From the IMG/VR virus record IMGVR_UViG_2529292977_000006: a stretch of DNA of 4,250 nucleotides. One strand, given 5' to 3'. Positions 1 through 4,250 of the stretch are shown here, piece after piece (the stretch's first letter is position 1; each line of letters opens with the position of its first letter). The notes beneath the pieces were generated by a model, which was not told where the DNA came from, made no database searches, and saw only the letters and a program-made list of their open reading frames with translations. A program made the position numbers and the translations under genes. The DNA is from a virus. Taxonomy: Duplodnaviria; Heunggongvirae; Uroviricota; Caudoviricetes.

Positions 1-582
1 TTATCAGCAACGGAAACGGCCTGGAAGCTGTGGGAACTTATGGGGGAGGTGTATTCGAACCGCTGGACCCAGAAGAACGGGGCTGCGCCGTCGAAGCTCT
101 GGATTGCTCAGATTGGCGCGATGACTGAACAGCAAATCCGGCAGGTCTGCCGTCAGTGCATGGACCGCTGCCGGGCGGGTGAAACGTGGCCTCCGGACCT
201 GGCTGAGTTTGTGGCGTTGATTTCGGAGAGCGGGGCAAATCCATTTGGCCTGACGGTGGATGCCGTGATGGAGGAGTACCGTCGCTGGAGGAATGAATCC
301 TGGCGGTACGACGGGAGTGATAAATACCCGTGGCCACAGCCGGTGCTGTACCACATTTGCCTCGAGATGCGTGACAGAGGGATTGAGCGGCAGATGACGG
401 AAGGTGAGTTAAAACGACTTGCAGAACGGCAACTGACGAAATGGGCAAAGCAAGTTGGTAACGGGATGAGTATTCCCCCGATCCGGAGACAACTCGCATC
501 GCCGAAGTGCCCGCAAGGGCCAACGCCAATTGAATTACTGAAACAGGAATACGAGCGCCGGAAGGCGGCTGGTTTTGTTTGA
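1..582 (+). CDS. Replication protein P-like (lambda P family helicase loader), 5'-truncated by the window edge
   Basis: The reading frame is open from base 1 (LSATETAWKLWEL precedes the first ATG at 40) and ends at TGA 580-582. The translation resembles the central and C-terminal part of lambda P as I recall it: PPDLAEFVALISE vs PSPGQFVAWCRE, a conserved YPW, and IPPIRRQLASP vs IPEPVKQLPV near the C-terminus. Minus-strand ORFs overlapping it are judged spurious. Confidence 0.7.
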   Translation, partial: LSATETAWKLWELMGEVYSNRWTQKNGAAPSKLWIAQIGAMTEQQIRQVCRQCMDRCRAGETWPPDLAEFVALISESGANPFGLTVDAVMEEYRRWRNESWRYDGSDKYPWPQPVLYHICLEMRDRGIERQMTEGELKRLAERQLTKWAKQVGNGMSIPPIRRQLASPKCPQGPTPIELLKQEYERRKAAGFV

Positions 583-615
583 ATCTGAGAAACGATTTTG
601 TCGGAGGAAATTTTA

Positions 616-1332
616 ATGGAAACCGTATCTGACGCACTGAAAGCACTGAAAAGAGCCTCTTCACATGTGGTGGCAGCTCGCCTTGGAATTAGTCGTGAAG
701 AGGCTGTCAACGAACTGTGGAAACTGAAACGCCGTGGAGAAGCGGATAACAAGGGGGCGATATGGTGGCTGACTCAGGCTGGTGAAAGTGAACCGGTGTC
801 ACCGGTACCGAAAGTGACGGCGCAAATGCTGACAGAGGCGATTGAACAACATGGCCCACAAACGGCGGATGAACTGGCATTGATGTTCGGAATTACCTCC
901 CGCCGGGCGAATTCATCGCTGGCAATGGCAATCAGCAAAGGGTGTCTGATTCGCGTGAATCAGGATGGTAAATTTCGTTACTGCATACCGGGCGTTGATT
1001 TACCGGCAGAGCCGAAAGCAGCATCCGTAGCTGAAACGGAGGGTAAAGCCCTTCCTCAGCCAGCTGGTGTTGCGTTACCAGTCCAGGAAACGGCTGCACA
1101 GGAAGAAATTAAAACAGAAGCGGTGGAGGACATTGTGAAGTTGCAGCAATCGTTCACTGAAGCGAAAGCAGATGACCTGATTCTACCATCGCTGCATGTG
1201 GCTAACCGCGAGCTGCGCCGGGCGAAAAGTAATGTTCAGAAGTGGGAGCGAGTCTGTGCTGCGCTACGGGAACTGAACAAACACAGGGATATTCTCCGGG
1301 ATATTACCGCCACCAGAGAGCAGCAGCGGTGA
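616..1332 (+). CDS. Hypothetical protein with two tandem winged-helix-like modules, a Pro/Ala-rich linker and a C-terminal coiled-coil-like tail; occupies the position of ren
   Basis: ATG at 616 is preceded by GGAGG (603-607) at 8 nt; the TTG at 598 used by the ORF track has no SD. Stop TGA at 1330-1332. Two segments have a similar HTH-then-basic-wing pattern (residues ~10-50 and ~75-125), followed by [26 protein letters not shown] and a charged helical tail. It sits immediately downstream of P, as ren does in lambda. Confidence 0.6.
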
Positions 1333-1646
1333 GTGGCTGGAAGAAGTGGCGCTGGGCTGAAATCCTGATACTCCGGCAGTGTGCGGGAACGATGAGAGTC
1401 GAAAGCATCGGTTATCTGATTGGCCGTAGTGAGTCAGCCGTCAGGACGAAAGCGCGGGAACTGGGTATCAGCATGATGTTACGGGGTGATTATCACCAGT
1501 CAGCCAAATGTTCACAGCGTGATATTGAGCTGGCGTGGCAACTGCATCAGCGTGGTGTACCCCGACGGGAAATTGCCGAAAAGTTTGGGATGAAGTTGGG
1601 CGCAGTGAATAACTACGTTTATTTCGACAGGAGGGTTCAGGAGTGA
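1329..1646 (+). CDS. Small helix-turn-helix DNA-binding protein (hypothetical)
   Basis: ORF in frame 0 ending at TGA 1644-1646. GTG at 1329 overlaps the upstream stop (GTGA), a typical coupling arrangement; the alternative start is ATG 1392. The ATG at 1242 would overlap the upstream gene by 90 nt and is rejected. Two HTH-like segments: [21 protein letters not shown] and [21 protein letters not shown]. Confidence 0.5.
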
Positions 1647-1945
1647 GGGTGAGGGTTTATATCGCCGGTCCGATGACGGGATATGAAAATTTTAACCGCG
1701 AGGCATTTCACAAAACGGAAGAGGTGCTGAAACGGGAAGGGCATACCGTTTTAAACCCGGCAGTACTTCCGGACGGGCTGACTCAGCCACACTACATGGA
1801 TATTTGCATGGCAATGCTCCGTTGCGTGGATGCGGTTTACATGCTGAAAGGCTGGCAGCAGTCGGCAGGTGCAGGGGCTGAGCTGGCACTGGAGGAGAAA
1901 CCGGGCCATGCGGTGATTTTTCAGGAGGTGGGCAGTGAATATTGA
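1643..1945 (+). CDS. DUF4406-like protein (nucleoside 2-deoxyribosyltransferase-like fold)
   Basis: GTG at 1643 overlaps the upstream TGA (GTGA) and is preceded by AGGAGG (1629-1634) at 8 nt; stop TGA 1943-1945. The ~100-aa product starts VYIAGPMTGYENFNREAF, which matches my memory of the N-terminal YIAG-x-(I/M)TG motif of DUF4406 / deoxyribosyltransferase-like proteins. This is recall, not a search. Confidence 0.6.
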   Translation: MRVRVYIAGPMTGYENFNREAFHKTEEVLKREGHTVLNPAVLPDGLTQPHYMDICMAMLRCVDAVYMLKGWQQSAGAGAELALEEKPGHAVIFQEVGSEY

Positions 1946-2252
1946 CCCGGCGATAACGATTGATATGGCCCTGAACGCCGGCCTGGCACTTCTTGGTTAT
2001 TTCTACATTATGTTCTGCAGCGGACGATGGCTGTCACTGTTGTTCATGAAAAAATGGAATAAACGCCGTAAGCAGGAGCAACGCCAGAAGGCAATGGATG
2101 CATTTTTCGAAGCCTTCGGAATTGACGGCATGGAACCAGGGGATCCAGCTCGCGCAATCAGCAGAGGGGGTGTAGTAATCCTTGTATATCGGAGTGAAGA
2201 GAAAAATGACGATCACAAAACAACGTGTAGAAGAAATCATATCCCGCATTGA
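1935..2252 (+). CDS. Small membrane protein (hypothetical), one predicted TM helix followed by a basic stretch
   Basis: GTG at 1935 with AGGAGG (1923-1928) at 6 nt; it overlaps the upstream gene by 11 nt. Hydrophobic segment ALNAGLALLGYFYIMFCSGRWLSLLF followed by KKWNKRRKQEQRQK. Stop at 2250-2252. The 3' end overlaps the next gene by 47 nt, so the true C-terminus is uncertain. Confidence 0.45.
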   Translation: MNIDPAITIDMALNAGLALLGYFYIMFCSGRWLSLLFMKKWNKRRKQEQRQKAMDAFFEAFGIDGMEPGDPARAISRGGVVILVYRSEEKNDDHKTTCRRNHIPH

Positions 2253-2523
2253 AATGTATGGACATGGTGCAGGGTATATCGCAGACGAGGTTAATGATCT
2301 GGCTATACTGGCGCTGAATTTATCAAATATCGCGAACCTGAAGCGATACGAGCTTGATATGGGAGGTTGCGACTCGTGCGGTCAGGATTGTGGCGCTGAT
2401 ATGACTGAAGATCCTGATGGTGATTATGTCCTGTTTGATGACGTGGTTAAGTTGTTTGAATTTGATACAACCACTCAAAAGTTAGAAATCCCGGCAAAGG
2501 AGGCAGCCAGTGGGCAAGATTGA
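2206..2523 (+). CDS. Hypothetical acidic protein with a Cys-rich knuckle (GGCDSCGQDCG); N-terminus paralogous to the 3143..3700 product
   Basis: ATG 2206 is chosen over the TTG at 2182 because the resulting N-terminus MTITKQRVEEIISRIEMYGHGAG aligns with MTTITKDRLLTIQHWRETYGPGS of the gene at 3143. Stop TGA 2521-2523. Weak SD (GGAG at 2191-2194). Confidence 0.55.
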   Translation: MTITKQRVEEIISRIEMYGHGAGYIADEVNDLAILALNLSNIANLKRYELDMGGCDSCGQDCGADMTEDPDGDYVLFDDVVKLFEFDTTTQKLEIPAKEAASGQD

Positions 2524-2947
2524 CTATCAGGCACTGCGTGAGGCAGCACAAAACTATCAATCGACGCTGGCGTGGTATCAGGCTACCCCGGACAGCCCAA
2601 ATGCTGAACGGGATTGTGATGCGGCTCTTGCTGCGTTTAAGCGTCACATCCGTCATCGGGAAGCGGATATTATCGCTGATTTGCTGGATGGACTGGAAGA
2701 AGCAAAATCACAACTCAACGAGCAGCGTGAGTATTACGAAGGCGTTATCTCTGATGGGAGCAAGCGTATTGCTGAACTGGAAGCGCGGGAAGTTCAATTA
2801 CCGACTCGCTACGACCTTCGATATGGACACCCGATAAATGCAGATGAGCGACATGTCATGATACCTAAAGAAAATGGCAGTTGGCTTTACCTGATTGACC
2901 TAGAACACGCATTACGCGTCGCTGGCATTCGCATCAAAGGAGAGTGA
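2510..2947 (+). CDS. Ead/Ea22-like family protein (coiled-coil phage early protein)
   Basis: GTG at 2510 with AAGGAGG (2497-2503) at 6 nt, overlapping the upstream gene by 14 nt; stop TGA 2945-2947. N-terminal DYQALREAAQ, central EEAKSQLNEQREYYEGVISDGSKRIAELEAREV and C-terminal AGIRIKGE match what I recall of lambda Ea22 / P22 Ead-like proteins. From memory only. Confidence 0.6.
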   Translation: MGKIDYQALREAAQNYQSTLAWYQATPDSPNAERDCDAALAAFKRHIRHREADIIADLLDGLEEAKSQLNEQREYYEGVISDGSKRIAELEAREVQLPTRYDLRYGHPINADERHVMIPKENGSWLYLIDLEHALRVAGIRIKGE

Positions 2948-2948
2948 G

Positions 2949-3140
2949 ATGAACGGACAAATATCAATTGTTCGACCAGGAGCATGTGACGATCGCGAAA
3001 TACGAATGATTATTCGTCTGGCGATGGGGAAAACAATAACTGCTCTCATTACTCCAGAAAATCTCGCATTAGCATTAACAGGAAAGTCAGACATGCCAGT
3101 AGAGCTAAAGCTGCGAAATGTTGAGATTAAGGTGAAATAG
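2949..3140 (+). CDS. Hypothetical small protein (63 aa)
   Basis: ATG 2949 lies 1 nt after the upstream stop, with AAAGGAGAG (2937-2945) upstream; stop TAG 3138-3140. No recognisable motif; it is called on operon context and the ribosome-binding site. Confidence 0.5.
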   Translation: MNGQISIVRPGACDDREIRMIIRLAMGKTITALITPENLALALTGKSDMPVELKLRNVEIKVK

Positions 3141-3142
3141 CT

Positions 3143-3700
3143 ATGACCACTATTACCAAAGATCGACTGCTGACAATCCAGCATTGGCGCGAAACATACG
3201 GACCGGGTAGCAACGTTGTGCTTCCAGCAGAAGAAGCGGAAGAGCTGGCACGGATTGCGCTGGCATCACTGGCAGCAGTATCGGATGAACGAGCAGCCTA
3301 TGAATTATTTATGGAGAAGCGTTTCGGAGAATCTGTAGATCGCCGCAGAGCAAAAAATGGCGATAGAGATTACATGGTATGGGATATGGCGCTTGGCTGG
3401 ATTATCTGGTGTCACCGCGCCGCCATGCTTCAGGCTGGAAACTTTCGGGAAAATAAGGGTTCGTCAACCAATAATTTTCGGATAATCTCGGAAACGTCAA
3501 CCAACTCTCCGGCAATCCCTGATGAGGTGTTGTCCGCAATCCTGAAGGTCGCCAGGCTTCGTGCAGATTTCGATGCTTCTGAAGTGGACAGGCGAGGTAT
3601 CGGTAGTTGTCTGGATGAGGCCGAGCAAGAACTTATCGTTACCATTAACGAATACGCCAGTCAGATCGCAGTAGAAGCGACACAGGGGGAGAACCAATGA
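3143..3700 (+). CDS. Hypothetical protein (185 aa); N-terminus paralogous to the 2206..2523 product
   Basis: ATG 3143 lies 2 nt after the upstream stop, with AAGGTGA (3129-3135) upstream; stop TGA 3698-3700. Shares the N-terminal pattern MT(T)ITK-x-R...YG-x-G...AL with the gene at 2206. Confidence 0.6.
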   Translation: MTTITKDRLLTIQHWRETYGPGSNVVLPAEEAEELARIALASLAAVSDERAAYELFMEKRFGESVDRRRAKNGDRDYMVWDMALGWIIWCHRAAMLQAGNFRENKGSSTNNFRIISETSTNSPAIPDEVLSAILKVARLRADFDASEVDRRGIGSCLDEAEQELIVTINEYASQIAVEATQGENQ

Positions 3701-3774
3701 GCCGGCCAGATGCATTTGCAGGCGTTGCTATAGCTATTGCTTTTCTAGTATATGTTATTTGTCGGTGGGGGTAA
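3697..3774 (+). CDS. Candidate 25-aa hydrophobic micropeptide (MSRPDAFAGVAIAIAFLVYVICRWG)
   Basis: ATG 3697 overlaps the upstream stop (ATGA), with GGGGGA (3685-3690) at 6 nt; stop TAA 3772-3774. One short hydrophobic helix. Too short for the ORF track; the call rests only on coupling geometry, the SD and hydrophobicity. Confidence 0.3.
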   Translation: MSRPDAFAGVAIAIAFLVYVICRWG

Positions 3775-3809
3775 AAACGTTCGCCGGGATTCACACCAAG
3801 GGAGGGAAT

Positions 3810-3914
3810 ATGTCGGATGATATTTCACTGGTAATGGAAGGCGCTCTGGCTGTTATTGCTGTTGTGGGTGTTTACTGCCTGGTTGTGTTTTTGATGGAGC
3901 GCCTGGGGAACTGA
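3810..3914 (+). CDS. Candidate 34-aa small membrane peptide (MSDDISLVMEGALAVIAVVGVYCLVVFLMERLGN)
   Basis: ATG 3810 is preceded by a strong SD, AAGGGAGGG (3798-3806); stop TGA 3912-3914. One TM-like helix flanked by acidic N-terminal and charged C-terminal residues. Not in the ORF track because of its length. Confidence 0.45.
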   Translation: MSDDISLVMEGALAVIAVVGVYCLVVFLMERLGN

Positions 3915-3982: not shown

Positions 3983-4000
3983 TGCTGCGGGTGCTTGAGG

Positions 4001-4036
4001 CTGTCTGCCTCGGGCATGCCACCGTAAGGCAGACAG
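4001..4036 (+). other. Stable hairpin in the presumed hok mRNA leader (10-bp perfect stem, 16-nt loop)
   Basis: CTGTCTGCCT (4001-4010) is the exact reverse complement of AGGCAGACAG (4027-4036). It is not followed by a U-tract. Confidence 0.35.
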
Positions 4037-4157
4037 AGAAAAGCCCCAGTTAACATTACGCGTCCTGCAAGACGCTTAACATTAATCTGAGGCCCAATCT
4101 ATGCTTCACAAACGTAGGTTAGCCTCTTACGCGCCGAAAGGCAAGGAGAAGCAGGTT

Positions 4158-4250
4158 ATGAAGCAGCAAAAGGCGATGTTAATCGCCCTGATCGTCATCT
4201 GTTTAACCGTCATAGTGACGGCACTGGTAACGAGGAAAGACCTCTGCGAG
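4158..4250 (+). CDS. hok: Hok-family type I toxin (HokD/RelF-like), 3'-truncated by the window edge
   Basis: ATG 4158 is preceded by AAGGAGAAG (4142-4150). The translation MKQQKAMLIALIVICLTVIVTALVTRKDLCE matches the N-terminus of E. coli HokD/RelF as I remember it, including the TM helix and the conserved Cys. An in-frame ATG at 4101 with its own SD lies upstream. Confidence 0.75.
   Translation, partial: MKQQKAMLIALIVICLTVIVTALVTRKDLCE

Follow-up and report, generated by a model that had tools for sequence, protein, structure and literature searches.

Two genes in a 4,250-nucleotide (nt) stretch of the IMG/VR virus record IMGVR_UViG_2529292977_000006, here called gene A (105 amino acids, aa) and gene B (185 aa), begin with diverged copies of one N-terminal module of about 45 residues, as is confirmed by the sequence comparisons described below. 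We refer to this module as the head, and to the whole stretch of DNA as the window. The window lies in the early-right accessory region of an Escherichia coli prophage of lambdoid (Rac/PPompW-like) type, and a second IMG/VR contig, IMGVR_UViG_2541047166_000009 (locus L005), is identical to it. The pattern of the head is a helix, a YG-x-G loop, a second helix and an (I/L)AL-x-x-L end, the helices being predicted. The original prediction, made from the DNA alone, was that the two genes share a paralogous N-terminal module attached to unrelated C-termini; both open reading frames (ORFs) lie on the plus strand as it described them, and the peptides it quoted are exact.

The two heads are about 40% identical, and their similarity reflects true homology. 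In a single BLASTP comparison, A and B are 32% identical over 81 aa (E = 3e-6). Smith-Waterman alignment of A1-45 with B1-48 scores 55, which was reached by none of 5000 shuffles (19.0 +/- 3.7, maximum 42). A profile built from B-type heads only finds A over residues 2-37 (E = 3.2e-6), and a profile built from A-type heads only finds B over residues 1-41 (E = 6e-8), with 13-18 bits observed against 6-7 bits for the best of 2000 shuffles. Gene B also makes a partial match, over residues 3-81, to the PHROG of gene A, phrog_3126 (E = 0.0037). No repeat links the two heads at the DNA level, and the homology is therefore an old one at the protein level and not the product of a recent duplication.

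Two other accounts of the A/B similarity have to be considered. That it reflects chance or composition, or a recent duplication within one prophage, is highly improbable: the segment is short, and the MT(T)ITK start of both proteins could reflect start-codon constraints, but the shuffles, the reciprocal profile matches and the 40% identity without a DNA repeat all speak against it, as does the wide occurrence of each type on its own (the A-type in Jersey-like and P1-like phages; the B-type in Shiga toxin (Stx) phages, P1/P7, Enterobacter and Mixta). Chance and recent duplication are thus refuted by the shuffle, profile and distribution tests. It is also quite unlikely that the homology spans about 80 residues, so that gene A would be a miniature of the N-terminal half of B (head plus core), even though the BLASTP alignment reaches residue 81 and includes YEL and DGDY/DRDY matches, the phrog_3126 match extends just as far, and a family-versus-family hhalign comparison of A and B covers 78 columns (E = 1e-4). 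The hhalign alignments are shallow (Neff, the effective number of sequences, only 1.4), too shallow to set the end of the homology, and so shuffles, single-type profiles, secondary structure and a Klebsiella phage match were used instead. The parts of A and B beyond the head are not significantly similar when taken alone (137-754 of 5000 shuffles reach the observed score, p about 0.03-0.15), nor is the Cys-rich module that follows the head of A significantly similar to B49-95; both single-type profiles align only within residues 1-41; AlphaFold2 (AF2) predicts, at low confidence, beta strands in A46-75 and continuous helices in B49-97; and A46-84 is found as a separate C-terminal module in Klebsiella phage KLB22, where a tblastn match of 54% identity lies at the C-terminus of the 170-aa protein MVRL009, after 125 unrelated aa. 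Because of these four lines, we do not regard the extension past the head as homology. The proteins diverge after about residue 45, and the original wording, about 40 residues and then complete divergence, is the better description.

The head is carried by a large number of proteins with different remaining parts, here called bodies. A head profile of 48 columns, made from head variants with A and B among the seeds, was searched against 1.84 billion cluster representatives (50% identity) and matches 1307 of them at E <= 1e-3 and 307 at E <= 1e-10. Both A and B match it at the N-terminus, and independent single-type profiles each recover the other type. Of the best 150 of the 1307 matches, about 146 have the head at residue 1, the 4 exceptions have a Met exactly at the start of the module, and the proteins are 52-418 aa long. 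A Pfam scan of 142 head-bearing representatives finds DUF551 in 39, dATP/dGTP pyrophosphohydrolase (DUF550, MazZ-like) in 6, Ead_Ea22 in 1, DUF4752 also, and no family in most. When the 60 residues following the head are clustered, 185 proteins give at least 41 groups, a count that leans high because some singletons are obviously frameshifted ORFs. The linkers that come after the head are rich in Pro and Glu (..EAEPVA.., ..AAPPxPVVPEE.., ..NSPVTPDGW..). This recurrence on many unrelated C-termini bears out the predicted modular arrangement, and rules out a recent duplication confined to the two genes. PHROGs divide these proteins by body, and the shared head is covered by no curated family; no Pfam or NCBIfam family for it was found, and a literature search found no paper describing it.

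Several proteins illustrate the portability of the head. In cluster representative P0330, a B-type head precedes a coiled coil and then a C-terminal domain of the lambda Ea22 type (57% identity to lambda Ea22 over 124 aa, E = 2e-51), the head standing in place of Ea22's own N-terminus. In gp087 of the P1-like phage SJ46 (311 aa), an A-type head is followed by 260 unrelated aa. Representative P0363 (186 aa) carries two different heads in tandem, one of the MTITRERIELFIKNPL.. type and then one of the MTTLTRHRLLRIRQWRKMYG.. type; the second begins with Met, and P0363 may represent either a fusion of two genes or a protein that truly has two heads. B-type heads occur in 190 phage records, mostly Stx phages (in the exo-xis region) but also P1/P7; in this tblastn search the matches end at residue 26 owing to the low-complexity filter, and only its counts and contexts are used. 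Beyond E. coli, at least two loci with a B-type head are confirmed, in Enterobacter soli and Mixta tenebrionis, the species range being poorly sampled in the genome-collection scan. A-type genes are found in lambdoid prophages and in Jersey-like Salmonella phages. A second head-bearing gene lies within +/-4 kb in 30 of 80 loci.

In gene B the head is followed by a conserved helical core, the X module and a short tail (Table 1). It has more than 7369 homologues, most of which carry DUF551 (PF04448), including its closest relatives (P0001, P0004, P0012 and others). Gene B itself does not reach the PF04448 gathering score, hmmscan against Pfam at E <= 0.1 returns 0 families, and no NCBIfam family matches. 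DUF551 proteins of 195-200 aa, such as WP_032167855.1 of E. coli O157:H7 SS52, are nevertheless 92-95% identical to gene B over its first ~131 residues and occupy the same slot, between a 63-aa ORF and a small ORF plus hokD, both in O157:H7 SS52 and in IMG/VR loci. They differ in that gene B is without the DUF551 domain and has the X module instead, followed by a tail that is homologous to the last codons of the DUF551 genes. Gene B is a DUF551-less member of the pool annotated as “DUF551 domain-containing protein”. In the alignment of relatives the core and linker are nearly invariant, while the head and the C-terminal part are swapped around them: P0002, P0003 and P0053 carry heads other than that of B, and in most relatives the linker runs straight into DUF551, some inserting the X module first. 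The X module is found in P0001, P0003 and P0053, and not in the 195-aa DUF551 forms. At the DNA level, window positions 3484-3680 are 88% identical to positions 2612-2808 of locus L083, and window positions 3673-3830 are 87% identical to its positions 3374-3537; the two flanking alignments overlap by 8 nt, and gene B is without about 565 nt of the long form found in L083. The resulting kind of tail recurs, as a 187-aa form, in cluster P0002, with 131 members. The regions of gene B match four PHROGs, all annotated as “unknown function”: phrog_3323 (residues 1-49), phrog_660 (45-96), phrog_14306 (91-179) and phrog_60 (whole length). In some prophages (loci L006, positions 4001-4387, and L014), TGG is changed to TAG in the homologue of B at the ..PDGW|ISCSERMP junction, just before DUF551, and this nonsense change gives a 128-aa product with an untranslated DUF551 remnant downstream.

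Gene A belongs to phrog_3126 over its full length (E = 2.5e-66, positions 1-105 of 105), a group to which gene B is only a distant relative through the head, its own match being partial; no Pfam or NCBIfam family matches gene A. In the AF2 model of A, the head consists of a helix at residues 5-18, the YGHGAG loop and a helix at residues 26-40 (predicted local distance difference test score, pLDDT, about 65-70), and the Cys-rich module of beta strands and a short helix. This module contains the motif CDSCGQDC (residues 55-62, window 2368-2391), in which C55 and C62 are invariant or nearly so in the family and C58 is often F. The motif is also present in the Klebsiella phage KLB22 protein, and it could be a disulfide or metal site, although this is uncertain. 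In loci L097 and L099 (from position 1501), a 205-aa form of gene A has the head and Cys-rich module followed by an extra domain of about 110 aa (..SAEGWTPEHDDQYSKSQLLWASSCYVLN..WPWTPEWWKP..).

The start of gene A is ATG 2206, as had been argued from the shared N-terminus. All 248 homologues start with MTITKQ, as does the RefSeq model WP_000156547.1 (hypothetical protein); in-frame stops lie at 2173-2178, 27 nt upstream, with only TTG 2182 between them and the ATG; and in Salmonella phage ST65 the same N-terminus stands behind unrelated upstream sequence, with GGAG at the same spacing. The B-type head begins at a Met that aligns with the Met of ATG 2206.

The closest parallel in architecture is the Ea22 family (PF13935), the members of which, like the head proteins, have a constant N-terminal part and exchangeable C-terminal domains, and to which P0330 provides a direct link. 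Lambda Ea22 has been described as tetrameric, its C-terminal domain being decoupled and exchangeable; its gene is a mosaic and DUF551 is portable (Sci Rep 2024, PMC10834534). However, neither A nor B matches PF13935, which is matched instead by the gene between them, and the A and B genes here lie downstream of the replication genes and not in the exo-xis region.

Polymorphic toxins such as Rhs and CdiA likewise have a conserved N-terminal part and swappable C-terminal modules, and the likeness extends to a conserved N-terminal part as possible recombination handle, variable cassettes and many copies per genome. Membership of that class is not indicated, as the Pfam scan of the 142 representatives finds no toxin domain. 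The head proteins also differ in having no evident immunity gene or secretion-related region, and look like small cytoplasmic phage early proteins.

We propose that the head comes from a pool of modules that lambdoid phages of enterobacteria, some P1-like phages and some Jersey-like phages use to build early accessory genes. The pool includes Ea22, DUF551 and DUF550 proteins, with linkers and interchangeable small domains placed after the head. Gene B is a head, a helical core and an X module without the usual terminal DUF551, and gene A a head, a Cys-rich module and a tail. The head would self-associate or dock onto a shared partner and thereby present the variable bodies, much as lambda Ea22 oligomerises through its N-terminal/coiled-coil part, on which exchangeable C-terminal domains are carried, and the near-identical head DNA in many genes would also serve as an anchor for swapping bodies. 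Taken as a whole, we give this blend of anatomy, evolution and function a probability of about 0.6. The anatomical and evolutionary part is very likely to be right. That the head acts as a constant protein-protein interaction handle is tentative and, in our judgement, falls somewhat short of even odds; it is suggested by the predicted helix-loop-helix, the N-terminal place with linkers behind it, the replacement of the Ea22 N-terminus, the paired head genes and the analogy with Ea22. A further step, in which the head would be the docking or oligomerisation handle of a combinatorial, rapidly recombining early-protein family whose bodies (DUF551, the MazZ-like pyrophosphohydrolase, the Ea22 C-terminal domain and dozens of small domains without a name) would confer specificity for different host targets or defence systems, and in which operons with two heads would form mixed complexes by contacts between heads, is speculative and rather unlikely. 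An anti-defence role for the head family, in line with the association suggested in the original prediction, may be raised only as a contextual possibility: a 2026 preprint (bioRxiv 10.64898/2026.07.10.737580) places the anti-OLD protein Oad2, which is related to EaE, in the modular recombination locus and notes that some phages have it fused to Ead/Ea22. A PADLOC search for defence systems gave no matches.

Several observations weigh against this proposal. Inspection covers the best 150 of the 1307 head matches, and some of the “different bodies” in metagenome-derived representatives are clearly frameshifted or truncated ORFs, so that the real architectures are fewer. The variety of bodies is very uneven: the B-type head is joined to dozens of different ones, and the A-type is far less promiscuous, since across 80 loci its own Cys-rich module almost always comes next and most of the variation lies beyond residue ~88. 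The AF2 models have low confidence (mean pLDDT 60.5 for A and 60.8 for B). In B, head helices are predicted at residues 6-18 and 29-45, with pLDDT values under 50 for residues 1-27; the core is predicted to be all-helical, and the X module has a pLDDT of 70-79. The fold of the head, a helix-loop-helix in both types, is thus a low-confidence prediction at the level of secondary structure. Sequence comparison of A and B with solved structures gave none at E <= 1. Foldseek comparisons of B with PDB and of A with BFVD gave no match at E <= 0.001; these fold searches are uninformative and are not used. No relative of characterised function came up by sequence or by structure. Comparison by hhalign of the head profile with the Ea22-like protein of the window and with lambda Ea22 gave a probability of 0.2%. 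Descent of the head from an Ea22 N-terminus was rejected for want of any similarity by hhalign, and because the two have no detectable similarity, the analogy with Ea22 concerns architecture alone.

Purifying selection acts on the head at the protein level. For the B-type head, 33 distinct DNA versions give a ratio of nonsynonymous to synonymous polymorphism (pN/pS) of 0.18, and 21 of 36 variable sites are at codon position 3. In addition, A-type and B-type heads retain the hydrophobic pattern, the YG-x-G loop and A-(D/E)-E...LA..AL without any DNA similarity, and it is this low ratio, together with a protein pattern that outlives DNA similarity, that indicates selection on the amino-acid sequence. 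Near-identical heads on unrelated bodies, conserved flanks and the up to 13 places per genome also make the head a natural recombination anchor. It could thus be argued that the head is kept mainly for its DNA, as an anchor for cassette swaps between co-resident prophages, and has little function as a protein. Genes with unrelated bodies share B-type heads of 91-100% identity, the variable part is flanked by the conserved upstream 63-aa ORF and by a conserved 3' tail and downstream sequence, up to 13 places per E. coli genome match this region and would provide ample partners, and the joints between modules coincide with short conserved linker sequences. This account does not explain why the amino-acid sequence is conserved while third positions change, or why A and B heads keep their protein pattern after DNA similarity has been lost, and we consider it unlikely as the main explanation; an anchor role and a protein-handle role are compatible and not exclusive. 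Less probable still is that the head is an N-terminal targeting or leader segment involved in localisation, complex loading or regulated turnover. It is strictly N-terminal, with the initiator Met included in essentially all inspected cases, and is followed by a flexible linker and diverse cargo, as a leader would be. However, the head sequence is without hydrophobic signal-peptide or transmembrane character, the genes belong to early accessory operons and not to structural ones, and we know of no precedent for the head as a leader segment, which also counts against this idea.

The features of the window are given in Table 1.

Table 1. Features of the window, with positions counted from its first nucleotide.
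Feature	Position	Strand	Basis or content
Replication protein P	40-582	+	
DUF1627 gene	613-1332	+	
Helix-turn-helix (HTH) protein gene	1323-1646	+	
DUF4406 gene	1643-1945	+	
DUF4752 gene	1935-2252	+	
Gene A, 105 aa, ATG start	2206-2523	+	ORF list; A-type head, Cys-rich module, variable tail
A-type head, residues 1-45	2206-2340	+	Homology to B head; AF2 secondary structure
Cys-rich module of A, residues 46-85 (RYELDMGGCDSCGQDCGADM...DGDYVLFDDV)	2341-2460	+	Unit separate from shared head
Ead/Ea22-like gene, 145 aa, between A and B	2510-2947	+	PF13935, 51.4 bits (cut-off 27)
63-aa ORF (phrog_1222)	2949-3140	+	phrog_1222, E = 1e-40
Gene B, 185 aa, ATG start	3143-3700	+	Head, helical core, X module, short tail
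B-type head, residues 1-46 (MTTITKDRLLTIQHWRETYGPGSNVVLPAEEAEELARIALASLAAV)	3143-3280	+	48-column profile search
Conserved core of B, residues 47-123 (SDERAAYELFMEKRFGES...GWIIWCHRAAMLQ, then linker NFRENK..STNSP)	3281-3511	+	Alignment of relatives
X module of B, residues 124-178, two long predicted helices	3512-3676	+	Optional pre-DUF551 insert in relatives
3' joint of B (..ATQGENQ*)	3673-3700	+	Counterpart of the ..PPQEVRQ* end of DUF551 genes
34-aa ORF	3810-3914	+	RefSeq hypothetical protein WP_001278450.1
sok antitoxin RNA	3989-4163		Rfam RF01794, 114.9 bits, complete
hokD/gef toxin ORF (MKQQKAMLIALIVICLTVIVTALVTRKDLCE...)	Starts after sok and runs past the window end (region 3989-4250)		

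The stretch from A to B is tightly packed on one strand, with a 14-nt overlap followed by gaps of 1 nt and 2 nt. A consensus scan of the plus strand found no promoter-like or terminator-like site between A and B, and because of this absence and the tight same-strand packing, co-transcription of the two genes is plausible. The annotation of E. coli O157:H7 SS52 shows a matching gene order, in which the counterpart of A is a “hypothetical protein” with an identical start and the slot of B is filled by a “DUF551 domain-containing protein”. The 47-nt overlap of the DUF4752 gene with gene A, in different frames, is annotated in the same way in O157:H7 SS52 and is kept in related loci. The block of A, the Ea22-like gene, the 63-aa ORF and B seems to be a movable accessory cassette.

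The Ead/Ea22-like gene product is 41% identical to lambda Ea22 over 118 aa (E = 3e-17). It has the lambda Ea22-type N-terminal and coiled-coil part, and its C-terminus differs but ends in AGIRIKGE like that of lambda. The gene sits on the 3' side of the replication genes here, and within the exo-xis region of lambda and the Stx phages. Copies of the 63-aa ORF that are 90-100% identical are found directly 5' of a head gene in many loci, whichever body follows. This ORF matches no Pfam or NCBIfam family and has no similarity to lambda orf63; its residues 26-60 show weak, partial similarity (E = 5.9e-6) to the C-terminus of phrog_11564, annotated as DNA methyltransferase. The strongly hydrophobic 34-aa ORF (MSDDISLVMEGALAVIAVVGVYCLVVFLMERLGN) has copies of 85-100% identity on the 3' side of head-bearing genes in many loci, and its product is probably a small membrane peptide. 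The sok RNA and hokD/gef form a type I toxin-antitoxin module directly 3' of the accessory block.

The mosaicism of Ea22 and DUF551 proteins has already been published, and the head is a previously unnamed module within this known mosaic family and not a new kind of system. The finding would not surprise a phage genomicist, but it helps annotation and offers an experimental handle. A very large unannotated group of prophage proteins from enterobacteria (at least 1307 clusters at 50% identity) begins with the head, and defining it would improve annotation of the accessory regions of Stx and lambdoid phages, since no Pfam or NCBIfam model exists, and would remove ambiguity from gene starts such as ATG 2206. 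If the head does turn out to be a common handle, a pull-down with one 45-residue peptide would provide a single experimental entry point into the vaguely phenotyped Ea22/DUF551 family (e.g. YfdS).

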